Positions 537 through 45,220 of a DNA stretch of 64,000 nucleotides are shown here, piece after piece. This DNA comes from an uncultured Pseudomonadota bacterium. Lineage in GTDB: Bacteria; Babelota; Babeliae; Babelales; RVW-14. The notes under the pieces are model-generated. The model did not search any database and was not told where the DNA came from. It saw only the letters and a program-made list of their open reading frames with translations. How positions within the stretch are numbered: the first letter of the stretch is position 1; every line of letters starts with the position of its first letter. Where the stretch lies: assembly GCA_964568625.1 (NCBI GenBank), contig CAZMQG010000001.1:19393-83392 (forward strand). The letters are read 5' to 3'. A program made the translations under genes and the position numbers.

Positions 537-3500
537 TTAAGCAAGCCGCGCTTTAAGCATCTCAAAATAAGGAGTTGTTCCATCTAAAATTATGGTTTTA
601 ATCTGCTCTTTATAACCAATGTGTAGATAACTAGTTTTTAAAACACCATCTACAATCCAATCAGAATTCTTACCGACATTAAATTCTGTTTGCAAAAAGT
701 AAATTGTTAAATTAAAGGCAAATCTTATTGAATTTAGATCCTTATAAAAATACCGGGTTCCTGATTTCAATTTAAAACTCTCAGAATCAAATTCGGTTAT
801 CTCTAATTTTTTGTGAAAATCGCTGTTCTTAATACCAGAATAAAGATCAGGATTAGAATTTTTATATCGACTAATACATAAAAATGCAACTTCAAACCGA
901 TGTAGCTCGTTAATATTTAGACCAAGCATATTTTTTATAACAGGATTGGTTTGCGACGGAGATTGAAAATCAACATACACAAAACACCTAGCCAAACTAA
1001 AATAAAAATACTGTTTTGAGGCATTGTCATAATCAGTATTTTTATTTAACTCATAAAATATTCGTGAATTAAAATCATCAACAAAATTATTCTTCTGTTT
1101 ATTAATCTCAGCATAATATTTCAATAAGATTGCGATTCCTAAACCATACAAATCAAAAAGTTGCGAATTTTTCCAAATACGTTGCTGATCTTGAGTCAAA
1201 TTCAATAATTTTAAAATTTCAGCCCACACAAGTTTGGCCGAGGCTACTGACAAATTTGAAACCAACATCTGCCCCAATATTATTTTCATGTCAGTATCAA
1301 GCAATTTAAAATTTCCATTTAATACTTTTAATTTCGTGTTAATTGTCGATTCGCCAGAAGATAAAGAATTAATCAAATCGGTTAAAGCAGTAATTTGAAC
1401 TTTATATTTTGATTGGGCTGCAATAGATTTAACCATAAGCATCTCTGAAAATTTTTTCAGTATTTTTTCGGTTTCACTTCTAAGTACATGAGCAATTCCA
1501 GGTTCATCTTCAACAGTTATATAACCACCACCTAAAACATAAAACTTTGAATCATCAAGGGCATTCATGCTTTGCATAATTTGATAAATATTTTGCCAAA
1601 CCACACTTGCAAGTTGCTCCGTAGAAATAAAATCTCCACCATTAAATTTATCTGCAATTTTCGTAAAATTAGTTGATTTGAAATATAAATTGTGAATTAA
1701 ATAAATCAAAATATAAGATAAATTCAACTTTTGAGTTTCATCAAGTACTGGATCATTAAAATAAAAAGATTCTACAAAATCAATTCTTAATTTATCTATA
1801 TTTTTTTTCTCAAATTTCAGTTTTGCGACTCCATTTGCAATATCATCTTTAACCCGATTACTAACTAAAGAAAATTTTTCTGCTACTATTCTTAAATCAT
1901 CTGTCGTATTTTTTTTGCCATCAAAATTTTTAATTATCGAAAAAACCTCTTTTCCCGCTATTTTTTGCACATCATCCTTTGGCTCTATGCCTGTATCAAT
2001 TTGTTCACCTGATAGCTTCTTTTTTAAAACTACTAATTTTTGTTGCAACTCATTTAATTTAAATTTAAAATTACCCAGTAATACTTTTAATTTTTTTAGT
2101 TTAGTTTTTAACGCTCTAGATGCATCTTCCCCTAACCCCGTTTTTGTAATAGCAAAACTTGTACCTGAAGTAACATATTTTTCAAATTTATCAAAATCTA
2201 GATTTAACAAATAATCTTTCAATGACAGCTTTTCTTTTGTAGCACTTCCAGCCGTTTTTAAAACTTGTTTTATATCGCTCTGATGTAAGTTTTTTAGTTC
2301 AGAAATGCGGTGAACATACGCATCCAAATCCAATTTAGTAAAATCCCCCAATCCGAATGAGCCAAGTTTATCGCTAAAATCTTCTGGAGATATTTTGGTA
2401 AATTTCCACAAAGCATTAGCCATCGGTTTATCGGTTTTATAAAGACTGGAATCCGTCGTAAAATTCCAATATTCACCCGCAAATTCAAACGCTATATAAA
2501 CATTGGATTTATCAGTTCTTCCATCAAAACTTGTTTTTATAAATACATTGTGAAGCGTTATTTTTTCGTTTTTATTTAAAGACAAGGCTTTTTTGAAATC
2601 ACCACTGCTTGAACCCAAAACTTTATCAAAGTCATTATATCCACATAATTCTTTGATAAAAAAAGTTTTTTGACTTTCTCTTCCTTGCAAATTCAAAAAA
2701 GAGTTGCGTATAAAGCTCAAAATACCAGTTTTCACGCCTCCTGCCATAACAGCACTTTCAATACTCACTTTTGAAAGTAAATGCAATGCATCACCACGTT
2801 GCATTGAGATAATTGATGGATAAAAATATAAAGGACTGGAAGCCTTAGTCCAATCAATATTAATACTATCAGTTGTTGGAAAATATGAGCTCCATGTTTT
2901 TAACCAATCAGGAACTGGCATATAATTTTTATGCAAAACCACACCAATCATTTTTTCACTCAATTGAATATTTCCATTATCAATATCAATTTTTTTGGGA
3001 GAAATTTTAAGTTCAACAGAAGTAATTGCAGGATATAAAAGTAAAGCTAATTTTTGATTAACATCTATGGTCGCCATTTGTGACTCGGAAAACTTCATTT
3101 TTTTTAATTTGGTTCTTTTTTTCCAATTCGATAGTTCAGTTTCAAATTCTGGCTTAGCCAAAACTTTAGCAATACTTGCATCAGTTATCTTTTGTATATC
3201 AGGATCAATGTCAAAATATTGAAACCACCCAACATTTGGAATCAAAACTTGGGGAATGTTGTTTATACCTAATCCACTTAAAAACCAATAATTCGAAAGT
3301 GTAAGTTTTTTCAAAACTCCTTTTAACCACGACTGTTTATCACCTTTTCTCCAATGCATCTCAAGAGCCTGAAAAAATCCATTTACATCTATGCTTGGGT
3401 CAATCAATTCCCCTGACTCAATTTTTTCCGGGTGGCTCGAAATAATGGGGGCGTCCGAAACAGCCGAAATAATCAAGATGTATTTAAGATTCATAGAAAC

Positions 3501-4307
3501 TTTTTGATCATCCAAATCTTTTCTAAACTGCATAAAATCAAGATTTTGTCCTCCGGATGAACATGTAAAAATTAAAACAGTATTAATATAAAGTTCATTT
3601 AAGAAATTCAAAACATCTGTAACTAAACTACTTTCAAGCCCAGCAATAGCTTGTCCAACATTTCCATGCCCATTCAAAACAATATTAACAGGGCGCAAAA
3701 AAGATGTTAGCTTTACATCAACAAGATCATCTGAGTTTTTAGTGATATTTTGTCTAAATTGCTCAAATCTAGAATCTTCATGCAAATCGCTTTCAGTAAC
3801 AAAAATATTTTTAAAAGAATCCAAGTTATACAAAGGATTTGGGGAATTATAATCTCTTATCTTCAAAAAATTATTGTCTTTATAAGAGTCAATTGGAATC
3901 CACTTAGATGCGTCATAAATTTTTATAATATTTGATTTTTCAACATCGTCTTTTCGAATTTTTAAAACAAGCGCAAAAAAATCCGTATCTTTTATTCCAT
4001 AAACCATCCAATCATCCGGCTTAAAATCTATGGACGCAAAAAAAACATCCTTACTCAGTCGTTTTTCAACAAAAATTTTCAAAATATTAACTGAGGCAAT
4101 TATAATATCAGACGCTTTTTGATGTATGTTTATAGCAAGCCCATTAGTAATAGCAAGCTTAGCAGAAGATACTTTTTCAGCCTTAAAAGAATCTATGTAA
4201 AATGCAACTCTTAGTGGCTTAGGGTCCCCAACTGTTTTTGCTGCAAAAATATTTGAATTTACAACAAAAAAAAATATACAAAACAACCCAACCGCCAACT
4301 TGCACAT
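537..4307 (-). CDS. giant secreted hypothetical protein (1256 aa) with clan-CD-peptidase-like His/Cys motif pair and a coiled-coil-like segment
   Basis: Uninterrupted 3.8-kb ORF. Signal-like N-terminus MCKLAVGLFCIFFFVVNSNIFAA. Hydrophobic strand plus HG (RPVNIVLNGHGNVG, His codon 3668..3666) is followed 35 aa later by hydrophobic strand plus C (NTVLIFTCSSGG, Cys codon 3563..3561). K/L-rich stretch KTKLKKLKVLLGNFKFKLNELQQKLVVLKKKL. No family recognised by eye. Confidence 0.55.
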   Translation of the reverse strand: MCKLAVGLFCIFFFVVNSNIFAAKTVGDPKPLRVAFYIDSFKAEKVSSAKLAITNGLAINIHQKASDIIIASVNILKIFVEKRLSKDVFFASIDFKPDDWMVYGIKDTDFFALVLKIRKDDVEKSNIIKIYDASKWIPIDSYKDNNFLKIRDYNSPNPLYNLDSFKNIFVTESDLHEDSRFEQFRQNITKNSDDLVDVKLTSFLRPVNIVLNGHGNVGQAIAGLESSLVTDVLNFLNELYINTVLIFTCSSGGQNLDFMQFRKDLDDQKVSMNLKYILIISAVSDAPIISSHPEKIESGELIDPSIDVNGFFQALEMHWRKGDKQSWLKGVLKKLTLSNYWFLSGLGINNIPQVLIPNVGWFQYFDIDPDIQKITDASIAKVLAKPEFETELSNWKKRTKLKKMKFSESQMATIDVNQKLALLLYPAITSVELKISPKKIDIDNGNIQLSEKMIGVVLHKNYMPVPDWLKTWSSYFPTTDSINIDWTKASSPLYFYPSIISMQRGDALHLLSKVSIESAVMAGGVKTGILSFIRNSFLNLQGRESQKTFFIKELCGYNDFDKVLGSSSGDFKKALSLNKNEKITLHNVFIKTSFDGRTDKSNVYIAFEFAGEYWNFTTDSSLYKTDKPMANALWKFTKISPEDFSDKLGSFGLGDFTKLDLDAYVHRISELKNLHQSDIKQVLKTAGSATKEKLSLKDYLLNLDFDKFEKYVTSGTSFAITKTGLGEDASRALKTKLKKLKVLLGNFKFKLNELQQKLVVLKKKLSGEQIDTGIEPKDDVQKIAGKEVFSIIKNFDGKKNTTDDLRIVAEKFSLVSNRVKDDIANGVAKLKFEKKNIDKLRIDFVESFYFNDPVLDETQKLNLSYILIYLIHNLYFKSTNFTKIADKFNGGDFISTEQLASVVWQNIYQIMQSMNALDDSKFYVLGGGYITVEDEPGIAHVLRSETEKILKKFSEMLMVKSIAAQSKYKVQITALTDLINSLSSGESTINTKLKVLNGNFKLLDTDMKIILGQMLVSNLSVASAKLVWAEILKLLNLTQDQQRIWKNSQLFDLYGLGIAILLKYYAEINKQKNNFVDDFNSRIFYELNKNTDYDNASKQYFYFSLARCFVYVDFQSPSQTNPVIKNMLGLNINELHRFEVAFLCISRYKNSNPDLYSGIKNSDFHKKLEITEFDSESFKLKSGTRYFYKDLNSIRFAFNLTIYFLQTEFNVGKNSDWIVDGVLKTSYLHIGYKEQIKTIILDGTTPYFEMLKARLA

Positions 4308-4352
4308 ACAGACTCCTTGGCTCGAAATAACAATTCAAATATTTTTTAAAAA

Positions 4353-5810
4353 CTAAAAATTCAATTTAATTTGCACGCTCAGGGTCCCACCAAACATGTC
4401 AGTTTTAAAAGTATGCTTTCCATAAAATGGATAGTCATATTCCAGAAAAATAGTTGGGCAAACTGATTTTAATTCAAGAGTATATCCACCAATAAAATGT
4501 AGTGCATAGTATTCCCAATCTTTAAGTTTTTGATCGGAATTAACAATATCATTAACCGAAACAACATTTGGCCATACATTGTTTGCAGGATAATATTGAT
4601 TAAGCTGTTGTTGAGAATAATTTTTTAATAAATTATCATCATGAATCGTAATAATAGTATCCTCCTGGCGCGTATAAGATGCTCCAATTTTTGCTATTAC
4701 TCCCTTAAACCCTAACTGAGCATATGCACCAACATCCCATTGAGCACCATAATCAACCTTGCCAAAACTTGGTTCAAGTAATATCCATCCATCTTGGTTT
4801 TTATCAGTTTTAACTCGTAAATCACGTTCTTGAGTAAAAAATACCAACCCACCGGCGTTGGCGCCAACACCAAGAAAATCAAAAACCTGAACATACAAAT
4901 TTATGCGTCCATCAATAGCCGTAGAATCCGCAGACCCAAGTGGAACCGCAAATGGCTTGGATAAATCAGTTTTACCTGATGTTGGAATAAGTACGCCAAT
5001 TTGAGCTTCAGCGCTTATCCTTTTAAAGATGGGAGATTGAGGATCCCCAGAACCATGCCAACCTGCAGATAAAAGAATGTCACCAACTCCGGACTTTTTG
5101 AAAGTATCTTGCCAATTGCTATTGAAAGTCATTGCAGCCAAAACATTATTCAGAGTGCCAGATTTTTCTTGCATAAAATCTTTAACATTTACAGTAGTCG
5201 GAGCCTTACTTTTCGTACCATCCCAAATATCTGCACCCGTTAAAGTATCGCTACCAAGATTATTATATGTAATCTTATCTATCTTCACATCCCGATATGG
5301 AATATACGCCTGAATAAAAAATCCCCAAAAAAGATCCTGCTTAAATGTAAAATCCCATTCGTCAATTTCAAAATGCCCACTATATTCAATTAAGCCATCG
5401 TTTGGGGTACTTTTTGTATAATTTGGAGGGAAAATAATCGTTTCTTTTGTTTTATCATACTTTCCCAAAACTGTAGGCGGAATGTAATTCGCACCACCCC
5501 AGTATCCAGTCATATCTTTTCCCAAAGAGTCTATTACAGTGTTTGGGCTATCTACATAGCATCCAATATTTGTAATATCCATATATCCATGCGCAGATAG
5601 CAATGGACGTCCATCATTATGTGTATCCCATGCCTTATGAGTACTTCCATGGCCATAACGTATGGATAGACCGGTTGTATATTTATCATACGCGTTATTA
5701 AAAGATTCTTGGAAAAATGGAGTCCGATAAAATTGTGGCAAATCAATTGCATTCAAAACACTCCCATAAACCAAGAAAAAAATGAGTCCATTTTTAAAAC
5801 TAAATCTCAT
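4353..5810 (-). CDS. outer-membrane beta-barrel protein (porin/MOMP-like), family unassigned
   Basis: Start trimmed to ATG 5810, which has an AAGGA SD 7 nt upstream, versus ORF-track start 5879. Signal peptide MRFSFKNGLIFFLVYGSVLNA. Alternating hydrophobic/aromatic strand pattern throughout. C-terminus ...GGTLSVQIKLNF ends in Phe, as in OM beta-barrels. Sits 45 nt upstream of the 1256-aa gene on the same strand. Confidence 0.6.
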   Translation of the reverse strand: MRFSFKNGLIFFLVYGSVLNAIDLPQFYRTPFFQESFNNAYDKYTTGLSIRYGHGSTHKAWDTHNDGRPLLSAHGYMDITNIGCYVDSPNTVIDSLGKDMTGYWGGANYIPPTVLGKYDKTKETIIFPPNYTKSTPNDGLIEYSGHFEIDEWDFTFKQDLFWGFFIQAYIPYRDVKIDKITYNNLGSDTLTGADIWDGTKSKAPTTVNVKDFMQEKSGTLNNVLAAMTFNSNWQDTFKKSGVGDILLSAGWHGSGDPQSPIFKRISAEAQIGVLIPTSGKTDLSKPFAVPLGSADSTAIDGRINLYVQVFDFLGVGANAGGLVFFTQERDLRVKTDKNQDGWILLEPSFGKVDYGAQWDVGAYAQLGFKGVIAKIGASYTRQEDTIITIHDDNLLKNYSQQQLNQYYPANNVWPNVVSVNDIVNSDQKLKDWEYYALHFIGGYTLELKSVCPTIFLEYDYPFYGKHTFKTDMFGGTLSVQIKLNF

Positions 5811-5994
5811 AAACATATCCTTACAACAACTAAAATTAATAATATTTTTTAGAAGCTGAATTATGGTAGTCAAACGCATTAATGAAATGCAAGAAAATGT
5901 ATGTTTAGTTAGAAAATGAGATTTTTAAGGCTAATTTTAATATTTATTTAGCCCCGATTTCTTAACTTTAAAATAATTTTGATCCTATCTATAA

Positions 5995-6816
5995 TTACAT
6001 AATATGATGCTTATAATATTTAAGTATTTTGGCTCTAGTTTTAGAGGCATTTATAGGATACCCCCAATCACTCCATCCGTCTTTTAACGCAGGATAAGGC
6101 GCAATAATTGGATTAACCCATTCATCAAAAAAATTCACACCCTCAAGCATGCCAGGATAATATGGTACAGGATCACCAATTTTATGATCAGGCAAATAGC
6201 CTAAACCTTTTACATCTGCAACTGAAATTAAAATGCACATTTTTACCAATTCTAGGCTTATGGGATAATTTAGCTGAACAGTCATACTTTTTAAAAATTT
6301 TAGGTAGCGTTTAACACTTATACGTTTTCGCATAACATCGCCAAATTTATAATGCATTCCAACCAGAATAGCAACAAGACGCATATCAACATCCCGCAGC
6401 CCAAATTCTTCACCAATGTTTTTAAAATCCAAATTGTTCAGCTTTGGAATATTGCGAGATTGATACGCCTTACACCCAGTCAAATAATCAAAACCCACTT
6501 CAGGATGCGAACTTTTTCCCTTCCAATCAAATTTATTATCACCACACTTTCCAATGTCATGAAGAAAAGCCGCTAAAACCAAAATATTTTTGTATTTTTT
6601 TATGTCTATCCCAACAGTCCAAGGGTATTCTTTATTTTGCAACCAAGAGGCAACCGTTCTTAAAACCCAAATTGAATGCTCATAAACATCTCCGGAATGA
6701 TATGAATGATCATCACTTTTATAAAACTGCATATCTTTCATTAAATCTTTTATTGCAAAACATGAACAAAAAATAAAAATAAACAATATCAATGCCAAAC
6801 ATTTTTTAATACACAT
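5995..6816 (-). CDS. HD-domain (HDIG-type) metal-dependent phosphohydrolase with N-terminal signal/lipoprotein-like peptide
   Basis: H...HD...H pattern: GDVYEHSIWV, AAFLHDIGKCG, SSHPEVG. N-terminus MCIKKCLALILFIFIFCSCFA. GGGGGAG SD immediately upstream. Confidence 0.6.
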   Translation of the reverse strand: MCIKKCLALILFIFIFCSCFAIKDLMKDMQFYKSDDHSYHSGDVYEHSIWVLRTVASWLQNKEYPWTVGIDIKKYKNILVLAAFLHDIGKCGDNKFDWKGKSSHPEVGFDYLTGCKAYQSRNIPKLNNLDFKNIGEEFGLRDVDMRLVAILVGMHYKFGDVMRKRISVKRYLKFLKSMTVQLNYPISLELVKMCILISVADVKGLGYLPDHKIGDPVPYYPGMLEGVNFFDEWVNPIIAPYPALKDGWSDWGYPINASKTRAKILKYYKHHIM

Positions 6817-8312: not shown

Positions 8313-9614
8313 ATGTTTCATGCGATTAAGCGCGCTCTGTGGGGCGACATTTCAGGAGAAGAGTTCAAACGGTTTGGACTATTATCTCTGACATTTTTGT
8401 TCATTATTGGTACATATTGGTTGATGAGACCTCTAAAAGACGGTCTTTTTATTAAGATTGTTGGCGCAAGCTACATTCCTTGGGCAAAAATTGCATCTTT
8501 CCTATTTATTGTTCCACTAATTTTGATCTACTCCAAGTTGGTTGACTTAGTCGCAAAACAAAAGCTCTTTTACATTATATGCACATTTTACGCATTACTA
8601 TTCTTTTTAATTTCATTTGCTCTAAGACACCCTACTATCGGACTTGCAAACACAGTTCCTGGTGCAGATAGACTTCTTGGTTGGATTATATATCTTTCAA
8701 TCGAAAGTTTTGGTTCTTTAGTAGTTGCGTTATTTTGGTCATTTGTTGCAAGTTCAACAGATACGTCATCTGCTAAAAAAGGTTATGCCCTAATTATTTC
8801 AGGCGCACAACTTGGTTCTATTGCCGGACCATTTTTGGCAAGTAATGCAAAAAGCTTTGGAATGCCTTTGTTAACAATTTTTGTTGCAATCGGAATCCTA
8901 ATTGTTCCTATGCTCATCAAATTGTTTATCACAGTTAACCCAAGCGCAGCTGAAGTAGCCCCTACTTCAACAGAAAAGAAAACCGGAATTATTGAAGGAT
9001 TAAAACTTCTTCTAACAAGACCATATTTGGCAGGTATTCTTGGCGTTGCAACATTGTACGAAATTATCGGAACAATCATCGACTATCAAATGAAGATGTC
9101 AGCTGAACAGGCTTTCCCTACCCCAGAAGCAATCACACAATTCCTTGGAAACTTTGGTATGGCTGCCAACAGCTTGGCACTTGTATTTGCATTAGTTGGA
9201 ACAAGCTTTTTCATCAGAAAGTTTGGGTTAACATTCTGCTTAGTTGCATTCCCAGTAACAATCGGAATCGTTGTTGGATGTGTATGGGCAATTCCAGGAA
9301 TCTGGGTATTGTTTGGAGCAATGGTTGCAATCAAGGGATTGAGCTATGCATTAAATAATCCATGCAAAGAAATTATGTACATCCCAACAAGTAAAGATGC
9401 TAAATTCAAAGCAAAAGGTTGGATTGATATGTTTGGTGGAAGATCCGCAAAAGCAGCCGGATCAGGCATCAACGCATTCTTTACAACTTTGTCAGAATTA
9501 ATGTTCTTCGGTTCAATCATCTCTCTTGGAATCGTAGGAATCTGGATTGTAGTTGCATTGTATGTCGGTAAGACAAACAAAAAACTTACAGAATCAGGTA
9601 CTATTATTAGCTAA
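8313..9614 (+). CDS. tlc: TLC-family nucleotide (ATP/ADP) transporter
   Basis: Polytopic membrane protein. The N-terminal region EEFKRFGLLSLTFLFIIGTYWLMRPLKDGLFIKIVGASYIPWAKIASFLFIVPLILIYSKLVD follows the TLC/NTT signature (F-x-Y-x-LR-x-KD ... G-A-E-x-IP-F-x-K ... Y-x-KL). At 433 aa it is shorter than canonical ~500-aa Tlc proteins. AAGGAG SD. Confidence 0.75.
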   Translation: MFHAIKRALWGDISGEEFKRFGLLSLTFLFIIGTYWLMRPLKDGLFIKIVGASYIPWAKIASFLFIVPLILIYSKLVDLVAKQKLFYIICTFYALLFFLISFALRHPTIGLANTVPGADRLLGWIIYLSIESFGSLVVALFWSFVASSTDTSSAKKGYALIISGAQLGSIAGPFLASNAKSFGMPLLTIFVAIGILIVPMLIKLFITVNPSAAEVAPTSTEKKTGIIEGLKLLLTRPYLAGILGVATLYEIIGTIIDYQMKMSAEQAFPTPEAITQFLGNFGMAANSLALVFALVGTSFFIRKFGLTFCLVAFPVTIGIVVGCVWAIPGIWVLFGAMVAIKGLSYALNNPCKEIMYIPTSKDAKFKAKGWIDMFGGRSAKAAGSGINAFFTTLSELMFFGSIISLGIVGIWIVVALYVGKTNKKLTESGTIIS

Positions 9615-9640
9615 GTTAGCTAATTGATAGCAAAATTTTA

Positions 9641-9678
9641 GGGCAGAGAAATCGTAAATGAAATCTCTGCCCTTTTTC
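9641..9678 (+). terminator. rho-independent terminator after the nucleotide transporter
   Basis: GGGCAGAGA (9641-9649) pairs with TCTCTGCCC (9664-9672), followed by TTTTTC. Confidence 0.7.
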
Positions 9679-9697
9679 TATGTTATAAAAAAATAAC

Positions 9698-19480: not shown

Positions 19481-20596
19481 TTAAAGATTCTTAATTCCAA
19501 TTCTATTCCAACCATCTGAAATTTTAGCAGCAACAGATTTATCAAAACAGACAGCAATTCCACAATCCCCACCACCAGCGCCAGAAAACTTAGATGCCGC
19601 CCCAAATTTCTGGGCTATTTGAATTAAGCATCCCAACTTTTTTGTTTCAAGATCGATCCCAGACTCAACCCCTAAATTAACAAGTAAATCTCGATTTTGA
19701 TTTATCAAATTAATTATTTCAACCTGATCACACTGTTCAAGAGCACTAACAAGCTTGCATACAACAGAATTTATTGCACCCATAATTTTTTGGTAGGCCT
19801 TCAAATTTTCTTGCTTAAATTTTTGCATCTTTTCAATCAATTTTGGGGTGAAAGCACTATAGCCAACAAACCCTATCAACAATTGCATATTCTCAGGCAA
19901 CTTAATTTCGCTAATTCTTAAATCAGGCCAGTCTAACAAAACAATATTACTTATATTTTTTGCAGAGCAAATCTCGTTTTTAAGCCATTCTGAATTAAAA
20001 ATTTTGTAGATAATCGGCTTTTGATAAGTCGAACAGGCAACGTCAAATCCGCTGCCAAGTTTTCCCGATGCAGAGTAATGCGACAAGCATGCAAGTTTAA
20101 ATACTAACTCCAAGCCTTCACTTGAATCAATATTAAAATCATGAAACTTTAAAATAGACTTGCAAACGGCAACCGTTACAGCAGCACTACTCCCAAGCCC
20201 GGGTTTTACAAAAATAGAGTCATCACTTTTGACAACAGATAACTCCGAATAAACTGATAATTCAAAAGGCTTTATTACAACACCCTGCTCAGTTAAAAAC
20301 TGTAGGCAATTTTTAATGACACAAAAACAGACATTGAATTTTGCAATAAGATGTTCAGGCAAAACTGGGGCAACGGAAAGGTGCCCCATAAGATTTTTCA
20401 GAGTCCATTGCAGAATAACATTTTTTAACCCTATATTCTCAGAATTAAAAATAATTTTTTTGGATTCTTGAATTCGTGCTGTAACAAATTTATTAACAGG
20501 GAGAACTATGCAACTATGCCCAGGCTCAAGAATGCTCCATTCTCCGGAGAGCATAATCTTACCCGGCGCTTTAACCTCAATCACCGGCCACTCCAC
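19481..20596 (-). CDS. mvaK2: phosphomevalonate kinase (GHMP family)
   Basis: GTG start overlapping the MVD stop by 20 nt. KAPGKIMLSGEWSILEPG (PMK-type APGK-x-x-L-x-GE-[YW]-x-x-LEPG), GHMP motif PGLGSSAAVTVA, C-terminal SGAGGGDCGIAV. Confidence 0.7.
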   Translation of the reverse strand: MEWPVIEVKAPGKIMLSGEWSILEPGHSCIVLPVNKFVTARIQESKKIIFNSENIGLKNVILQWTLKNLMGHLSVAPVLPEHLIAKFNVCFCVIKNCLQFLTEQGVVIKPFELSVYSELSVVKSDDSIFVKPGLGSSAAVTVAVCKSILKFHDFNIDSSEGLELVFKLACLSHYSASGKLGSGFDVACSTYQKPIIYKIFNSEWLKNEICSAKNISNIVLLDWPDLRISEIKLPENMQLLIGFVGYSAFTPKLIEKMQKFKQENLKAYQKIMGAINSVVCKLVSALEQCDQVEIINLINQNRDLLVNLGVESGIDLETKKLGCLIQIAQKFGAASKFSGAGGGDCGIAVCFDKSVAAKISDGWNRIGIKNL

Positions 20597-21563
20597 TTAT
20601 AATCGTTTGAATGTCTTCAATTATTTTAAGTTCAGATAAAATTTTATCCTGATACTTTTCAAGAGTTAGAATCTTAACATTAGGACCGGCATCAATTGTA
20701 AAATAACACTGAATCCCATCAGCTCGTAATCGATTAACCAATTCAATAATTTTAATTGTTTTATCCGTCCAGTAATTTATTGTAGGAGTAGACGTATGCA
20801 TTGTTTCATGCATTTCAAGACAATCAACCTGTGCAAGTTCGCCAAGAGTCTCTAAGTCTTTATTTGCAATAGCATTCAGCATAGGTTTTATGCGTCTCTC
20901 AGAAGTTCCAAGCCAATCCTGATAGATTTTACTAGTCTTAGCAGTAATCTGCATAGCATGACTTGAACTTATAGGCTTCTGTTTGGCCTGAACCACTGCA
21001 ATAATTATTTTCAAATCAGGCCAATGATCAGCCTTAAAAAGCTGTTCTGAATACGAATCACTTCCCTGGGAGCAAACGCCTTTGTGCCACAGATTAAATC
21101 CACCCAGTATAGACCTGGATGCAGATCCAGACCCACGACGTGCTAAAATTGAAAGTTCTCTAACATTAAGATTTAGACTACAAAGTTCATTCAACCCTTT
21201 TGCAAGAGCAGCAAAACCGCTTGCGCTGCTGGCAAGCCCTGCAGCAGTTGGAAAGTTATTTACAGAATTAATCTGGAAAAAAGAATCTTGTAGAAACACA
21301 CCTTGTGGAGACTTGTGAGTTGCAAATTTTTTGCGAAAAATATGCAAAAATCGCAAAATTTTCACATTGGATTCGTCACTGGCAAAAGTCCCATTAAGCC
21401 TGATTGTATCAGAATCAGTGAACCCTAATTCTGTAGTTGTTTTTAAAGCATCAAGGGAAATAGATATACTGCTTTTTGTCGGCAGCATAAAAAATTCATC
21501 TCTTTTTCCCCAGTATTTAATTAAAGCTATATTTGCATTTGCCGATGCGATAACGGTATTCAT
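20577..21563 (-). CDS. mvaD: diphosphomevalonate decarboxylase
   Basis: ANANIALIKYWGKRDE...PTKSSISISL and AAGLASSASGFAALA, the typical MVD signatures. Confidence 0.85.
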   Translation of the reverse strand: MNTVIASANANIALIKYWGKRDEFFMLPTKSSISISLDALKTTTELGFTDSDTIRLNGTFASDESNVKILRFLHIFRKKFATHKSPQGVFLQDSFFQINSVNNFPTAAGLASSASGFAALAKGLNELCSLNLNVRELSILARRGSGSASRSILGGFNLWHKGVCSQGSDSYSEQLFKADHWPDLKIIIAVVQAKQKPISSSHAMQITAKTSKIYQDWLGTSERRIKPMLNAIANKDLETLGELAQVDCLEMHETMHTSTPTINYWTDKTIKIIELVNRLRADGIQCYFTIDAGPNVKILTLEKYQDKILSELKIIEDIQTIISGVAGD

Positions 21564-22160: not shown

Positions 22161-23213
22161 CTAACCCAAAGGATCTGGCCAGAAAAAAAGAACTCCACAG
22201 TCTAGTTTCTCTTTACAAATCAAATCATTTAGCATGTCTCTTGTATCTCCCGCAATTTTTCTTATCAAAGGACTATCCAAACATTCTCTGTAAAAATCAT
22301 CACATAAAAACCAAGAATCACAATAGTTTACATAAGCCATGCAATGTCCATAAAATGGTTGTGCTAATTTTTCAAAATAAACCGCTTGCTTAGTTGCACA
22401 TTTAACAGCTTTTAATTTATAGACTTTTTTAGTACTAATTTTAAAAGAAATTTGAGAAAACACAGATTCAAACCCAGATACAATTTCATAAAAAATCTCT
22501 GGCGCATAAATTAAATCTGATACATGTTTTACCACAAAAAGATCCAATGATGGAATAAAAAGAAAAAAGAAATCCAATCCGTAATCATTAAATCCATGAA
22601 TAGGTAGATTCAAATCTCCATAAACATATTGAATTCCATTATCAATGGGTAAACGCGTTATTTCTTTTAAAGCTATAATAGATTTTTTTTCGTGAGAATA
22701 AAAAAAAGCATGAAGTTCTGAATCCACTATTTCTTTTAATAAAAGGTATTCAGACAACAATACAATACCACCAAACCCACAATCCCAAAACTCTTGGTAA
22801 TACATGCTGTTCATATATTTAAAGATCTCCCAGCATGGAGTATTTGAACAATTAATTATATGTTCACGTAATTCTGAAATTCTTAAATCTGAAAGTCTTT
22901 TCGAAGGTTCTCTTAAAAAAGACATTAATAACTCTTCATTGCAAGTAAATTTTTTAAGATTTTCTCTTAATATTTTTAATTGAACTTCCAACTCATTTTT
23001 AGGCTCTTTTGTTTGATCTATATATGAACAAAATTGGGGAGACTGCAATAAACATTGTAAGGTTGCATTACAAAAACAAATACCTCTTTCTGCGTCATTA
23101 TAAAATGGAATAGGAAAGGTAGGTTGCCCAGGCAAAATAATTGAAAAAGCTAAAGAACAAAAGATTAGATTAATGCTTGTTGATAACATTAATAAAAATC
23201 TTATAACTTTCAT
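22161..23213 (-). CDS. eukaryote-type ubiquitin-specific protease (USP/UBP, peptidase C19)-like protein with signal peptide
   Basis: Cys box ERGICFCNATLQCLLQSPQF (Cys46, codon 23078..23076). His box YKLKAVKC...FYGHCMAYVNYCDSWFLCDDFY (His290, codon 22346..22344). N-terminus MKVIRFLLMLSTSINLIFCSLAFS. Confidence 0.65.
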   Translation of the reverse strand: MKVIRFLLMLSTSINLIFCSLAFSIILPGQPTFPIPFYNDAERGICFCNATLQCLLQSPQFCSYIDQTKEPKNELEVQLKILRENLKKFTCNEELLMSFLREPSKRLSDLRISELREHIINCSNTPCWEIFKYMNSMYYQEFWDCGFGGIVLLSEYLLLKEIVDSELHAFFYSHEKKSIIALKEITRLPIDNGIQYVYGDLNLPIHGFNDYGLDFFFLFIPSLDLFVVKHVSDLIYAPEIFYEIVSGFESVFSQISFKISTKKVYKLKAVKCATKQAVYFEKLAQPFYGHCMAYVNYCDSWFLCDDFYRECLDSPLIRKIAGDTRDMLNDLICKEKLDCGVLFFWPDPLG

Positions 23214-26780: not shown

Positions 26781-29198
26781 TTATTCAAAATCCCCGCCTT
26801 GACCACCTTGAGGATTAACACCATTGGTTTCTTTATCAAAAAATGTCACTAATTTTTTACTGCGTGACGGATGACGCAACTTGCGCAAAGCCTTAACTTC
26901 GATCTGACGAATACGTTCTCGAGTAACTGAAAAATCTTTGCCCACCTCTTCAAGAGTATGCTCAGATGCAACATCTATTCCAAAACGCATCTTCAACACT
27001 TTTTCTTCTCGTGGGGTAAGAGATTTTAAAACCTCGCGAACCTTTTCTTTTAGGTCTTCATTAACAACCGCATCAACAGGTGAATACTCATTCTCATCTT
27101 CAATAAAGTCTTTTAATGAGGTATCATCGCTGTCTCCAACCGGAGTTTCAAGTGATACAGGCTCTTTTGAAATCTTAATAATATTTTTGATCTTTTTCTC
27201 ATCAAGATTCAATTCTTTAGCTAACTCGGCATAACTTGGTTCACGGCCAGCTTCCTGAATATACGTACGTGTTATTTTATTTATTTTGCTTAATGTTTCA
27301 ACCATGTGAACAGGAACACGAATGGTACGAGACTGGTCTGCAATTGCTCGAGTTATAGCCTGACGAATCCACCAAGTTGCATAAGTTGAAAACTTAAATC
27401 CTCGTTCGAATTCAAATTTTTCAACAGCCTTAAGCAATCCAATATTACCTTCTTGAATCAAATCCAAAAAATGTAACCCTCTGTTTATATATTTTTTTGC
27501 AATGTTAACTACCAGTCGCAAGTTTGCACGAGCCAAATCGTCTTTTGCTTCTTTATCTTTATGCTGAGCCTTTACAAACTGCTTATACAAAGACATCATT
27601 TTGTCTTTTGAAAGCCCGGCTTCCTGCTCTGTTTTTTTAATCATTTTATAAGAACTACGAACTGAAGCATCAAGGGCGGCCAACTGTCCCAAATCATCTT
27701 GAGTTGGTTTTTTTATTCCCTTATAGAATTTGAGTTTTTCCTCGCCAATCTTAATTTCAGATTCGCGTTCTTGAACTTTGGCAATCAACTTTTCAATTCG
27801 TTTCCCAAACTTTCTTATCAATTTGTTTGAAAACTTAATCTCACCAATGGCCTGAATTACCTTTTTCTTATTTTCCTCTACCTTTGCCAACATCTCTTTC
27901 TTTTTAGATTCATTTGAGAGCTGAGGTCGATATGAATGATAAATTTTATCTTCATTTTCAATAAGATTTTTGATTTTACCAATCTGCCCTAAAAGCCTAC
28001 TTCGCTCTTCCTCAAATTTTGGAGAATTATCTTCATCAAAATCAGAAAACTGAATGACATCCTTCAAAAACATTGGATCTCGACCAAGTCGCTCTTCAAA
28101 TCCTATTAATTCTTTGGCTACAAAAGGAAATTTAGAAATAGAATCAATAGAGTCGCGCTTACCTTGAGCAATTTTATCGGCAATAACTTTTTCTGTTGTT
28201 TTATTTAAAAGCGGAATTTTTCCAATCTCTTTTAGATAAAGTTTAACCGGATCATTTAACTGGCTAGGTTCAATCAAGCCTCTAAGCTTCTCTAACTCTT
28301 TATCATGCTCAGACTCTTCTTCAAACCCTGAGTACTCAGTCCTTTCCAATGACGATTTTAAATCCTTAGTCATTGGAGCAAAGGAGGCAACTTCATGCTG
28401 TTCCAAAAATACGTCTGCCTCTCCTCCACCAGCCTCAAGCTCTTCCTGCATTATCAGGTCAATGTTTTCTTTTTCAAGAATTCCTAAAAGCTCATTTGTC
28501 TCTTCTTCACCGATTTTGTGTTTTGTAGTAAAAAGAATTAATTCTTCATAACTCAAAACACCGTCACACTTACCTTTTTCAATCAATGCAGCAACTTGTT
28601 TTTCTACACTTTTAAGAGTATTTCCCGAAACATCACCATCCTCAATGTCAACAATGGCAAGATCTTCTTCTTCAACATTGACATCTTCCGGCAAATGTCC
28701 TTCGTCGTCCCCTCCAACACGCTTAGCTACAACATCCGCTTCTTTTTTATCATGAATCAACTTCTTAACAGCTTCCTTTGACTCACTGCCGGACGTTAAA
28801 CTTTTTTTATCGGTTAAAGCGTCAGTAGATCGAACGATTTTACTCTTATTTTTTAAATCTTTTTCTTTTAAAACATTTTTAGTTTTTGATACAGCCTTAA
28901 CCTCCTGTACCTTTTTAGCAACTTCTTTTTTAATAACAACAGGCTTTGCTGCCTGTTTTATCTTAGATGCAACAGGGGCCGCTATTTTTTTTACAACCAC
29001 GGTCTTGGAGGTCGGATACTTTGCAATCACAATCTTAGATTTACCAGCAGATTTAACGGCACTTTTTTTGATAACTTTTTTTGATACAGCCTTAACAACC
29101 ACTTTTGAACTTTTTTTCACACCGAACCTTACAGATTTGGCAGAGGCTTTTGCTCTACTTTTAATAATTTTTTTTGTCTTAGCTAATTTTTTTATCAT
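26781..29198 (-). CDS. rpoD: primary sigma-70 factor with ~130-aa Lys/Ala/Val-rich N-terminal extension
   Basis: Region 2 [54 protein letters not shown], region 4 [31 protein letters not shown]-terminus [53 protein letters not shown]... Confidence 0.9.
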
Positions 29199-41485: not shown

Positions 41486-44400
41486 CTATTTACTTAATGC
41501 GGTCAAATCAGTAGTAACGTCATTAATCATTGTTGTAAACGTTTTTCCACTGGCAACTAATTTTGATGTTACAAGAGTAGCATTTGCATACCAAGCTTTT
41601 AATGCTTCTAGTTTTGTCTTATCTGTCTTCGGTCTTGCATTGTGCAAATTAGTTAAAGCAGTCCAGAAACTGGTCTGAACTGTTGTATAAACTAAAGTCG
41701 AATTTGCAGCTACATTTGTAGCCACACTTGTTACCAAATTTTGTAGCACTAACAATTGTGCATCATAAGTTGAAGTTGTAACTGTAAAACTCTTTAATAT
41801 ACTGTTCACCCTTGATATCTCAATTGCCAATAAGTCTGCATTAATATCACTAATCATTGTTGTAAAATTTTTATCAGCGGCAACTAGTTTTGATGCCGAG
41901 AGAGTTGCATACCAATTGGTTAGGGTTTCATACCAGGACTTTAAAGTAGTTAATTTTGCTTTATCTGTTTTAGGCCTTGCATTATGCAAACTTGTTAATG
42001 CAGCCCAAAAGTTTGCTTGTTCAACTGTGTAGTCAAGCGTCTGATTTGCTTGAAAAGCTGATGCTACACTTGTTACCAAATTGGGCAAAATAGGCAACTG
42101 AGAATCATAAGTTGAAGTTGTAACTGTAAAAGTTTTTAATATATTATCAACTCTTGCCATCTCAGCAGCTGCTATCAAATTTGCAAAATCTGAATTGATG
42201 TCATTAATCATACTAGTAAAATTTTTATTAGCAGCAACTAACTTCGATGCTACTAATGTCGCATACCAAGTATTTAATGTTGTATACCAAGAAATTAAGG
42301 TCGTTAATTTAGTCTTATCCGTTTTAGGCCTTGCATTATGTAAACTTGTTAATGCGGTCCAAAAACTAGTTTGAACAGGTGAGTAATCAAGAGACTGATT
42401 CGCCTGAAAATTCGCAGCTATACTTGTTACCAAATTTGGTAATATCGATAACTGAGAATCATACGTCGAAGCTGTCACAGTAAAATTCTTTAATATACCG
42501 TTAACCCTTGCCATTTCAGCCGCTTGCACTAAAGACTGATCTATTTTTGTAAAATCCGAATTAATATCATTAATCATACTAGTGAAATTTTTACCAGAGG
42601 CAACTAACTTTGATGCAACTAGTGTCGCATACCAGGTATTTAACGTTGTATACCAAGTTTTTAAGGTAGTTAGTTTAGTCTTATCTGATACCGGCCTTGC
42701 GTTATGTAAACTTGTTAATGCGGTCCAAAAACTCGCCTGCACCGGAGTATAGTCAAGAGCCTGATTTGCTTGAAAGTTTCCTGCAATGCTTGCCACCAAA
42801 TTTGGCAGTATTGATAACTGAGAATCATAAGTTGAAGCTGTAACTGTAAAATTATTCAATATATTACTTACTCTTGCCATCTCTGCAGATTGAGCCAAAG
42901 CCTGATCTATCTTTTTAAAATCTGAATCAATATCACTAATCATTGTTGTAAAACTTTTATCAGCAGCAACTAATTTTGATGTTTTAAGAGTTGAGTCTGT
43001 ATACCAACTTTTTAGTGCTGCTAATTTTACCTTATCATTACTAGGTCTAATCTTATGCAAATTAGTTAAAGCCAACCAAAAACTCGGTTGATACTGTGTA
43101 TAATCATACACTGAACTAGCAGGCACACTTTTTGCCAAGTCTTGCAATGCCAATAATTGAGAATCATAACTTGAACTAGCCAAAAGAACATTTGTATTTG
43201 CAGGTGTAAAACTACTTAATATATTATTAACCCTTGTCATTTCAGCAATTTTTACAGCAGACGCTTTATTTGCAACTTCTATATCTGTTCCAAGCTGCAT
43301 TAACCAATTTGCTAAATCCGAATTTTGCGCAAAATTCAAAAAAGATTTATTCATTGCATTATTTATCAAAACTTTTAAATCAGCCAAAGTCGAAGATGTT
43401 CTATTATTATAAAAATTTTTAATTGCAGTATAAATTGAGTTACTAGAACTTGGATAATCCTGTAAAAACGTCTGATTAAACATACCTGTAGAAACACCAA
43501 CAACATTTGCATTCAACAATGCTGGCGTTCCTGATTTTGTTTTATCATTTAATATAGCAGTCAAAGCTGATTTTACTTCATCCACTAGTCTGCCACTCCA
43601 ACTTTTAAGATCAGATTTTTGGGATGAAGTCAAAAAAGCTTTAGATTGAGCATTGTTTAACAATAGCTGCACATCTCCTAATGGATAAAGATTCCTGTTG
43701 TTATAAAAATTTTGAATTATCGTATAAATCGAACGACTTGAGCTTGGATAATTCTGTAAATAAGACTGATTAAAGCTTGAAATTAAATTTATACTCAAAG
43801 AATCAGTCGTACTTGAAGCATCAACAACATTTGCATTCAATAAAGCAGGAGTTCCAGATTTTGTAGAATCATCTAAAATTGCCTTTAAAGAAACTTTTAC
43901 ATCATTTTGCACCTGCATTAAACAATTTTTAATATCATCCTTCTGTGATGAGGTTAAAAATGCTTTATCTTGAGCATTTTTCAATAAAATTTGTAAATCC
44001 CCATATGAGGATGATGTCCTATTATTATAGAAATTTTTAATTGCCGTATAAATAGAACTTCCCAAACTTGGATAATCTTGTAAATATGCCTGATTAAAAA
44101 CATCGTTAGATACTGAAACAATATTCGCATCCAATAAGGCTGGAGTACCAGATTTTGTAACATCTCCAAGGATTGCCACCAAGGATGATTTAACAGCTTC
44201 CGTTACAGCACTCGTTTGCTGAGAAACAGCCTGCACAGTAGTAGATATCGTAGATGGAACAACAACCGGTACGGCAGAAGTCAGCCGTGGCAATTGAGTT
44301 TGGGTTGTCGCAGCAACAATTTGAGTTGCAACCGGTTGAGCAACAGCCTGTACCTGTGATTGCTGAGTTTGTGTTTTAGCCTGTGCCTGTAATTGAGCCT

Positions 44401-45220
44401 GCAACTGCTGTGCTTGTAACTGCTGAGCTTGTAATTGAGCTTGCAGTTGTTGAGCTTGTAATTGAGCTTGCAGTTGTTGTGATTGTAGCTGTGCTTGCGC
44501 TTTTAACTGTTGAGCTTGCAATTGCTGAGCCTGTAATTGAGACTGAAGTTGCTGCGTTTGTAACTGAGACTGAGCATCTTGCCCCACTGAAGAAGTTATA
44601 GGGGTAGTTAACGGAACCGTTGATGATACACGTGTAGCATAAGCATCTGATGATAACCCCGAAGTTGTTGTAAGTCCTCCAGTAGAAACAACACCTGATG
44701 TAGGCGTAGTACCTGAACCTGATGTAGACACCAAATCTGACGTCGATCCCAAAATGGATTGCCCTGGAAGACTAGATCCAGTAGCAGATGAAGTTGAATC
44801 CGATAATAAATCTAAAAGCAATTGGTCTTGTGCTTGCGCCAAAGGTAACTTATCTGATAAAGATCCCGATTGTAATGACAAGTCTTGCGGAATTCCACTT
44901 GTAGGCAAAGATATTCCCGACGCTTGAGATTCTTTAGAAACTCCAACATCACCAGATGGCTCCAATAATTCTGATGACAAATCTTGAATAGAACTATCTT
45001 GAAAAGGCTCACCTTGTATAGTTAATTTTTGATTAGAATTTGTTGATTCCCCTGAACCGGCAATATCCCCAGATTGTTTTAATAAATCTAACGATAAATC
45101 TTGGGAAAAAAAATTCTGATCAGTATTTGAAGAATATACAGACTGATTTGTCGCCAAGTACATTCCTGTAACCATAATAAAGACCAGTATCGTTGACATC
45201 TCTATTGAATGCCACTTCAT
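41486..45220 (-). CDS. 1244-aa repeat-built surface/secreted protein (orphan)
   Basis: N-terminal hydrophobic anchor STILVFIMVTGMYLA. Short QDLS..LL..SGD repeats, an S/T/G-rich linker, a Q-rich (QLQAQ)n tract, then 3 + 5 long tandem repeats (see repeat features). Confidence 0.8.
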   Translation of the reverse strand: MKWHSIEMSTILVFIMVTGMYLATNQSVYSSNTDQNFFSQDLSLDLLKQSGDIAGSGESTNSNQKLTIQGEPFQDSSIQDLSSELLEPSGDVGVSKESQASGISLPTSGIPQDLSLQSGSLSDKLPLAQAQDQLLLDLLSDSTSSATGSSLPGQSILGSTSDLVSTSGSGTTPTSGVVSTGGLTTTSGLSSDAYATRVSSTVPLTTPITSSVGQDAQSQLQTQQLQSQLQAQQLQAQQLKAQAQLQSQQLQAQLQAQQLQAQLQAQQLQAQQLQAQLQAQAKTQTQQSQVQAVAQPVATQIVAATTQTQLPRLTSAVPVVVPSTISTTVQAVSQQTSAVTEAVKSSLVAILGDVTKSGTPALLDANIVSVSNDVFNQAYLQDYPSLGSSIYTAIKNFYNNRTSSSYGDLQILLKNAQDKAFLTSSQKDDIKNCLMQVQNDVKVSLKAILDDSTKSGTPALLNANVVDASSTTDSLSINLISSFNQSYLQNYPSSSRSIYTIIQNFYNNRNLYPLGDVQLLLNNAQSKAFLTSSQKSDLKSWSGRLVDEVKSALTAILNDKTKSGTPALLNANVVGVSTGMFNQTFLQDYPSSSNSIYTAIKNFYNNRTSSTLADLKVLINNAMNKSFLNFAQNSDLANWLMQLGTDIEVANKASAVKIAEMTRVNNILSSFTPANTNVLLASSSYDSQLLALQDLAKSVPASSVYDYTQYQPSFWLALTNLHKIRPSNDKVKLAALKSWYTDSTLKTSKLVAADKSFTTMISDIDSDFKKIDQALAQSAEMARVSNILNNFTVTASTYDSQLSILPNLVASIAGNFQANQALDYTPVQASFWTALTSLHNARPVSDKTKLTTLKTWYTTLNTWYATLVASKLVASGKNFTSMINDINSDFTKIDQSLVQAAEMARVNGILKNFTVTASTYDSQLSILPNLVTSIAANFQANQSLDYSPVQTSFWTALTSLHNARPKTDKTKLTTLISWYTTLNTWYATLVASKLVAANKNFTSMINDINSDFANLIAAAEMARVDNILKTFTVTTSTYDSQLPILPNLVTSVASAFQANQTLDYTVEQANFWAALTSLHNARPKTDKAKLTTLKSWYETLTNWYATLSASKLVAADKNFTTMISDINADLLAIEISRVNSILKSFTVTTSTYDAQLLVLQNLVTSVATNVAANSTLVYTTVQTSFWTALTNLHNARPKTDKTKLEALKAWYANATLVTSKLVASGKTFTTMINDVTTDLTALSK
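41489..43246 (-). repeat. five in-frame tandem repeats of 112-122 codons (family B)
   Basis: Units start on the minus strand at 43246, 42886, 42520, 42166 and 41824 (anchor AEM(A/T)RV / IEISRV). Consensus AEMARVNxILKNFTVTASTYDSQLSILPNLVTSIAxNFQANQxLDYxPVQxSFWTALTSLHNARPKTDKTKLTTLKxWYTTLNTWYATLVASKLVAxxKNFTSMINDINSDF. The three middle copies are also highly similar at DNA level. Confidence 0.9.
43250..44200 (-). repeat. three in-frame tandem repeats of ~98-108 codons (family A)
   Basis: Anchor KSGTPALL(D/N)AN(I/V)V at about 44156, 43863 and 43538. Shared FNQ.YLQ(D/N)YPS...SIYT.I(K/Q)NFYNNR...L...L(K/N)NA..K(A/S)FL(T/N).(S/A)Q(K/N).D(I/L). Confidence 0.85.
44340..44590 (-). repeat. Gln-rich low-complexity tract incl. 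a perfect 27-nt tandem duplication (44425-44451 / 44452-44478)
   Basis: Encodes QSQLQTQQLQSQLQAQQLQAQQLKAQAQLQSQQLQAQLQAQQLQAQLQAQQLQAQQLQAQLQAQAKTQTQQSQ. The plus strand shows GAGCTTGTAATTGAGCTTGCAGTTGTT twice in a row. Confidence 0.9.

Follow-up and report, generated by a model that had tools for sequence, protein, structure and literature searches.

Within the 64-kb window analysed here (a stretch of contig CAZMQG010000001.1 from a Babeliales (Dependentiae/TM6) bacterium, called the window throughout), two adjacent genes lie on the minus strand, a gene for a putative outer-membrane protein (the OMP-like gene) on the 5' side and, behind it, a large open reading frame (ORF) encoding a predicted exported protein of 1256 residues. 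Residues 30–668 of this large protein represent an undescribed large protein family that has many members in Dependentiae (TM6/Babeliales) and is built around an invariant histidine and an invariant cysteine. Dependentiae form a widespread phylum whose members live inside protists as obligate parasites and, to our knowledge, almost nothing is known about the means by which they manipulate their hosts. From sequence motifs, profile comparisons and a predicted structure, we lean, with some reserve, towards the view that the N-terminal domain of the family is a highly derived cysteine peptidase of the clan CD (caspase/legumain/CHAT-like) type.

A family with an invariant histidine and cysteine

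The extent of the family becomes apparent at the level of profiles. A word-index search with the large protein returned only seven relatives (26–91% identity), two of which are ~770–810 residues long and cover only its first ~700 residues, and a word-index homolog search started from a 77-sequence alignment gave only 6 matches. A profile of residues 30–668 (alignment A2), run against 1.84 billion representatives of clusters at 50% identity, yielded 582 matches at E ≤ 1e-3, 243 at E ≤ 1e-10 and 98 at E ≤ 1e-30. Since the 155 family sequences that were analysed have a median length of 696 residues and the match usually begins at residue ~25–35, a module of ~640 residues constitutes the unit of the family. 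The module comprises two domains, which co-occur in all family members examined.

Conservation was counted in an hmmalign alignment of 155 family representatives with pairwise identities below 50%. His214 is retained in 136/136 and Cys249 in 138/138 of the sequences that cover these positions; no other feature of the family is conserved as strongly as the His/Cys pair, and a chance motif is ruled out. The histidine is flanked by Gly213 (134/136) and Gly215 (133/136), whereas the cysteine is preceded by Ser or Thr at position 248 (137/138) and followed by Gly252 (129/139) and Gly253 (136/139). Conserved acidic residues are found at positions 39 (Asp in 90/95) and 285 (111 Asp and 13 Glu out of 137), and Pro352 (129/137) and Gln353 (126/136) lie towards the end of the N-terminal domain. 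The sequence-only reading had singled out this very pair, a histidine at the end of a hydrophobic strand with a cysteine 35 residues further on; the motif is as it described, and the homologs keep both residues without exception.

Conservation extends into the second half of the module, where Tyr/Phe496-Pro497, Ser501-Met502, Gly528, Asn558-Asp559, Trp614 and Trp634 stand out, the Asn-Asp pair being 98–99% conserved (Asn558 in 125/128, Asp559 in 126/127). Beyond the module, the large protein carries a C-terminal extension of ~590 residues that is present only in its closest relatives (P0001–P0005) and in which no known domain was matched. The K/L-rich, coiled-coil-like segment mentioned in the sequence-only reading is indeed located in this extension and is kept in homologs, and the short homolog P0006 ends in a segment of the same kind.

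The four conserved polar residues (His214 and Cys249, perhaps together with Asp39 and Asp285) could in principle make a metal site, in which case the residues would be metal-binding or structural and the protein a non-catalytic adhesin or scaffold. We regard this as very improbable, given that a single histidine and a single cysteine within glycine-flanked motifs at predicted strand tips (G-H-G and S-C-x-x-G-G) are a signature of catalysis, and that invariance across more than 130 sequences of less than 50% identity would be extreme for a scaffold.

Library searches brought no link to characterized proteins. Pfam (E ≤ 1) and NCBIfam gave no match to either of the two proteins, Pfam at E ≤ 10 produced only scattered noise for 61 relatives, and PADLOC found nothing in the same 61 sequences. 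Among PDB sequences, no relative of the large protein was detected by phmmer or by two profiles, including the 77-sequence profile. A tblastn search of plasmid and phage collections gave no match, no further copy was found within the window, and our search of the literature for cysteine proteases or caspases of Dependentiae retrieved nothing relevant.

Predicted fold and comparison with clan CD peptidases

Structure prediction with AlphaFold2 (AF2) from an 8-sequence alignment gave a mean predicted local distance difference test score (pLDDT) of 62 and this model was discarded, whereas the 77-sequence alignment (A3) yielded a model with a pLDDT of 91 and a predicted template modelling score (pTM) of 0.92 (model m9e36955e54ab). 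In the numbering of alignment A2, to which 29 is added to obtain protein numbering, the N-terminal domain of this model starts with a strand (3–9) that runs into Asp10, followed by a helix (23–34), a second strand (39–43) and a second helix (44–55). An insertion of ~115 residues (protein residues ~88–203) then separates helix α2 from strand b3. Next comes a strand-helix-strand unit in which His185-Gly186 follow the first strand (178–184) and, after the helix (197–207), Ser219-Cys220 follow the second (212–218). Behind it lie a helix (224–231), a strand (248–251), Asp256, two helices and a strand at the conserved Pro323-Gln324. In protein numbering, strand b1 (32–38) thus leads to Asp39, b3 (207–213) to His214, b4 (241–247) to Cys249 and b5 (277–280) to Asp285, such that in the model the histidine, the cysteine and both aspartates are each placed at or just past the C-terminal end of a strand, four strands in succession, and have the look of an α/β active site. 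The order of the elements is compatible with that of the caspase-hemoglobinase fold. Residues 355–610 of the model form the beta-rich second domain.

If the N-terminal domain is a clan CD peptidase, His214 at the tip of b3, with Gly215 following, would serve as the general base and Cys249 at the tip of b4 as the nucleophile. Asp39 at the end of b1 and Asp285 beyond b5, both nearly invariant, would occupy the positions of the S1 pocket in clan CD, which suggests that cleavage may occur after a basic residue.

To compare profiles directly, hhalign was run with either the family core (residues ~194–374) or the His/Cys unit alone as query. The references were six caspases, whose identity was verified against the PDB, human legumain, in a sequence near-identical to the legumain in the PDB, and ten CHAT domains taken from annotated plasmids. 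The core aligned with the caspases at P 0.0031 over 44 columns, with His214 placed on His121 and Cys249 on Cys163 of caspase-3, and with human legumain at P 0.0043 over 47 columns, the dyad being in register on His148 and Cys189. The His/Cys unit alone was in register with CHAT at P 0.05. A positive control, caspase against legumain, reached P 0.0049 over the same His/Cys unit, and five negative-control comparisons gave P values of 0.2–0.7. Under the same conditions, the likeness of the family to clan CD therefore equals that between two accepted clan CD families, which does not amount to proof. Column shuffles of the core, a lenient null, scored 11.7 ± 2.3 as compared with the observed 25.4, which none of 300 shuffles reached. 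In a global alignment from which the insertion had been removed by hand, the entire caspase domain was covered from b1 to b6, its strands and helices all in order, with a score of 23.9 (P 1.6e-4); shuffles restricted to the flanks scored 1.8 ± 1.4, and 0/200 attained the global score.

Several observations weigh against the clan CD assignment. The HH probabilities are low (8–25%), and the hhalign signal comes mainly from the His/Cys unit of ~50 residues, the N- and C-terminal flanks alone giving P 0.16–0.19 and meeting the correct regions for caspases only, not for legumain or CHAT. With the window sequence alone as query, no signal rose above that of other proteins of the window. The leniency of column shuffling and the manual removal of the insertion count on the same side. 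The family and structure searches by which the sequence-only reading had proposed to check the assignment gave it no support. None of the Pfam models of clan CD (C14, C13, C25, C11, C50, C80 and CHAT) matched the protein at E ≤ 1 or appeared among the matches of the 61 relatives at E ≤ 10, and the PDB sequence and profile searches established no clan CD link. Foldseek of the pLDDT-91 model against the PDB found no match at E ≤ 0.001, the best being deoxyhypusine synthase at E 0.1 and a caspase-4 chain following at rank 39 (E 2.1, TMt 0.25), and a search of BFVD gave no significant match either. Of the clan CD proposal, the motif, the topology and the profile register have stood, but recognition by a clan CD Pfam model or by a significant Foldseek match has not followed. 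With respect to the sensitivity of the profile comparisons, we note that CHAT against caspase, a true relationship, gave P 0.17 and was misaligned, so that reference alignments of this small size have low power; for a single yeast metacaspase sequence, only the His strand aligned.

The failure of a pLDDT-91 model to find a significant Foldseek match in the PDB or BFVD, together with the lack of a link to known families at the level of hidden Markov models in library searches, speaks for a Cys/His enzyme outside clan CD that has its own fold, for example a deamidase, an acyl- or aminotransferase, an isopeptidase or an enzyme of the ubiquitin pathway, in which Cys249 would again be the nucleophile and His214 the base. 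In such an enzyme a third catalytic residue might be contributed by the second domain, for instance from Asn558-Asp559, which along with other residues of that domain is conserved like the dyad in two domains that are always found together, and a RING fusion in one family member hints at ubiquitin-related biology. The succession of His and then Cys, the glycine after the histidine, the placement at the tips of neighbouring strands and the register with three clan CD families are, however, what clan CD would predict, and most other Cys/His clans have the cysteine before the histidine or use other scaffolds. We therefore consider an enzyme on its own fold possible but doubtful. Unlikely, in our estimation, is the more far-reaching proposal that the module represents a structural class of Cys/His enzymes in its own right, with no relation to clan CD or a merely convergent resemblance, that supplies hundreds of secreted Dependentiae effectors and of which one subfamily works with a dedicated, likewise novel outer-membrane barrel as a lineage-specific device for export or display in host manipulation. 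Triads of the clan CE, sortase, L,D-transpeptidase, α/β-hydrolase and pentein types were considered and rejected as improbable, in view of the order and spacing of the residues and of the secondary structure predicted for the module. We thus retain the derived clan CD peptidase as our preferred, guarded assignment for the N-terminal domain.

Gene arrangement and the OMP-like neighbour

The layout reported in the sequence-only reading, an OMP gene followed after 45 nucleotides (nt) by a same-strand ORF with a signal peptide, is correct in every element described (Table 1). The OMP-like ORF as delimited mechanically (4353..5879, 508 residues) ends in GGTLSVQIKLNF and terminates with a TAG codon at 4355–4353, while its true start is placed at Met24, nt 5810, by comparison with 12 aligned homologs and by an AAGGA site that precedes this codon by 7 nt, in agreement with the end coordinate that had been assigned to the gene on first inspection. 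No terminator-like hairpin was found in the spacer 4308..4352, and co-transcription of the two genes is plausible from the sequence. The large protein begins with MCKLAVGLFCIFFFVVNSNIFAAK, which resembles a Sec signal and would be divided as MCKLAVGLFCIFFFVVNSNIFAA/K.

Table 1. Positions of the two genes and of the parts of the large protein within the window
Feature	Coordinates	Strand	Details and basis
OMP-like gene	4353..5810	-	485 residues from Met24; homologs and ribosome-binding site
Spacer, 45 nt	4308..4352	-	Ribosome-binding site AAGGAG at 4318-4313, 5 nt before ATG at 4307
Large gene, predicted exported protein of 1256 residues, stop codon included	537..4307	-	
Putative Sec-type signal peptide, residues 1-23 (…NIFAA/K)	4239..4307	-	Read from sequence; conserved in homologs
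N-terminal α/β domain with candidate active site, residues 30-374	3186..4220	-	AF2 model, conservation, hhalign
His214 codon, GHG motif (RPVNIVLNGHG)	3666..3668	-	136/136 conserved
Cys249 codon, (S/T)-C-x-x-G-G motif (NTVLIFTCSSGG; …VLIFTCSSGG)	3561..3563	-	138/138 conserved
Beta-rich second half of conserved module, residues 375-668	2304..3185	-	AF2 model and conservation
C-terminal extension, residues 669-1256	540..2303	-	Only in closest relatives
K/L-rich coiled-coil-like segment, residues ~731-767	2007..2117	-	Conserved in homologs

The product of the upstream gene is a putative outer-membrane beta-barrel. It has a predicted signal peptide (MRFSFKNGLIFFLVYGSVLNA/IDLP) and 13 homologs, and its terminal phenylalanine, the aromatic residue of a C-terminal beta-signal, is invariant in an alignment of 12 homologs. 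Weighing against the assignment, no Pfam match was obtained at E ≤ 1 for 12 members, nor a credible profile match in the PDB. A two-partner secretion (TpsB/TpsA) or autotransporter arrangement was rejected, as the ShlB/POTRA, Haemagg_act and autotransporter Pfam models matched neither protein.

In close relatives (loci L003, L004 and L005), the order HD – OMP – large gene – ArgRS is retained, and the OMP gene adjoins the family gene in tandem in L003, L005 and partly in L004. The HD gene of the window (5995..6816, minus strand) lies directly upstream of the OMP gene, an order that is conserved in L003, and encodes a protein whose N-terminus (MCIKKCLALILFIFIFCSCFA) resembles a signal peptide or the start of a lipoprotein. 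In L003 itself (9594..13297 of JGI contig Ga0052186_10004643), the ortholog of the large gene is broken into ORFs of 141 and 1098 residues by a frameshift, by decay to a pseudogene or by an assembly error.

Outside this close clade, the two genes are again neighbours in L002/L009, a setting of 46% GC in which their identities are only 26% and 33%, the orientation is convergent and the surroundings are entirely different. Indeed, no other gene of L002 has a homolog anywhere in the window. Adjacency despite this divergence argues for a functional link within this subfamily, and the putative barrel may partner the large protein for docking or export. Conversely, no OMP gene was found beside the family members in L001, L007, L008, L010, L011, L023, L024 and L025, which weighs against such a link as a property of the whole family. 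The suggestion of the sequence-only reading that the large protein is paired with its own OMP is thus moderately supported, holding for the close clade and one very divergent genome but not for most members.

That the adjacency carries no meaning, the barrel being a general porin or major outer-membrane protein of the lineage and the large protein acting independently, is a serious alternative, if somewhat short of an even chance. Family genes lie dispersed between housekeeping genes, share no neighbour that recurs and often stand in arrays of tandem paralogs that lack an OMP gene, and the window is itself ordinary chromosomal context with ArgRS, HD and TLC genes; set against this is the renewed neighbourhood of the two genes in L002/L009, where the other neighbours and the orientation have changed. 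By analogy to PorU, which is bound to PorV in the type IX attachment complex of Bacteroidota, the large protein could alternatively be a sortase-like transpeptidase or processing enzyme that is docked on the outer-membrane barrel at the surface and acts on surface proteins of the bacterium itself. The same layout, with a barrel gene next to a signal-peptide protein of ~1200 residues that bears a gingipain/caspase-like dyad, and the survival of the adjacency in two divergent genomes despite rearrangement would fit this scheme. We nevertheless judge it improbable, as neither Peptidase_C25/PorU nor PorV-type barrels show similarity to the two proteins, most paralogs have no OMP neighbour, and the RING, DnaJ and ankyrin domains to which some family members are fused speak for targets in the host. 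Dependentiae are also not known to possess a type IX secretion system, although no search for one was made.

Elsewhere in the window, a second pair of an OMP gene and a giant gene had been suspected at 45273..46835 and 41486..45220 (both minus strand) and was rejected, the genes not being paralogous to the pair described here and the upstream one encoding MurJ. The gene directly downstream of MurJ specifies an internally repetitive protein of 1244 residues with a weak DUF5848 match. A sigma-70 factor of 805 residues (26781..29198, minus strand) has an unusually long N-terminal extension, its recognisable regions beginning only at residue ~316, and two genes of the mevalonate pathway, for a GHMP kinase and diphosphomevalonate decarboxylase, are located at 19481..21563 (minus strand) in what is a reduced genome. 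The first ~38 kb of the window have a strongly negative GC skew (about -0.15 to -0.26), and the values approach zero thereafter, a change that tracks the switch from mostly minus-strand genes to mixed or plus-strand genes.

Export, host context and likeness to known systems

The related loci derive from metagenome-assembled genomes of Candidatus Babeliales and other Dependentiae/TM6. The window has a GC content of 30–39% and encodes, at 8313..9614 on the plus strand, a TLC-type NTP/NDP (ATP/ADP) translocase of the kind that marks energy parasites. Next to a distant family member in L011/L012 there is likewise a TLC gene. Among family members with a complete N-terminus, 81 of 94 have a hydrophobic start that resembles a signal peptide. 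Further domains are fused to some members, namely RING (P0126, from TM6 genome LDIV), DnaJ (P0073, where it separates the first half of the module from the second) and, weakly, ankyrin (P0163), and paralogs form tandem arrays in L001 (2038..7954), L007 and L025 (4758..10358). We know of no type III or type IV secretion systems in TM6 bacteria. A type II secretion system with two copies of gspD has been described in TM6 genomes (PMC4776705), and for Chromulinavorax destructans, an isolate of the Dependentiae, signal peptides have been reported in 44% of the coding sequences, a set that is enriched in proteins without a known function (PMC6561590).

On the basis of the signal peptides, the RING, DnaJ and ankyrin fusions, the tandem paralogs and this secretion background, the most economical inference is that family members are secreted, host-directed effectors. 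Following Sec-dependent export, the large protein would be released, for example via the type II secretion system, or retained at the cell surface, and the released or surface-held protein would act on host or envelope proteins. As a separate observation, a protein of 350 residues encoded at 22161..23213 (minus strand) has a sub-threshold match to the Pfam UCH model (E 7.7e-4, 19.6 bits compared with a cutoff of 23.9) and may be a deubiquitinase-like effector.

Much of the Dependentiae secretome has been reported to lack a recognisable function (PMC6561590). One large piece of it is now defined as a two-domain module that spans 582 clusters at 50% identity, carries an invariant His/Cys pair and has a high-confidence predicted structure with no solved relative. 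Were the N-terminal domain a caspase/legumain-type protease, the module would constitute a new clan CD family, and His214 and Cys249 would provide concrete targets for mutation in studies of host takeover by TM6 bacteria; were the clan CD assignment wrong, the module would represent a new fold for a Cys/His enzyme. The recurrent pairing with an unclassified OMP offers a testable lead on protein delivery by these bacteria.

With the families of clan CD (C14, C13, CHAT/C50 and C25), the module shares the order of His before Cys, the glycine after the histidine and the location of the dyad on strands joined by one helix. The 35-residue spacing is within the range of the clan, the dyad is in hhalign register with caspases, legumain and CHAT, and the secondary structure is collinear with that of the caspases once the insertion is removed. 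Unlike these families, the module has no Pfam, PDB sequence or significant Foldseek match, contains the ~115-residue insertion between α2 and b3, shows the pattern x-x-G-G after the cysteine and is always fused to a beta-rich domain of ~290 residues with a near-invariant Asn-Asp.

The PorU-PorV attachment complex of the type IX system resembles the locus in that an outer-membrane barrel gene stands beside the gene for a signal-peptide protein of ~1200 residues with a clan-CD-type dyad, but neither protein of the window is detectably homologous to either partner. The self-processing C80 toxins (MARTX, TcdA/TcdB), a comparison raised in the sequence-only reading, likewise have a clan-CD-type His/Cys dyad inside a very large exported protein. 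The protein of the window differs from them in having no C80 match and no toxin, repeat or translocation domains, and in the location of its dyad domain, which in the family is N-terminal within a conserved two-domain module. Finally, although the protein of the window itself has no eukaryote-like domain, the family is comparable to effectors of intracellular bacteria such as Legionella and Dependentiae that bear ankyrin, RING/U-box or J domains, in its lineage-specific expansion, its tandem paralogs, its signal peptides and its occasional fusions.

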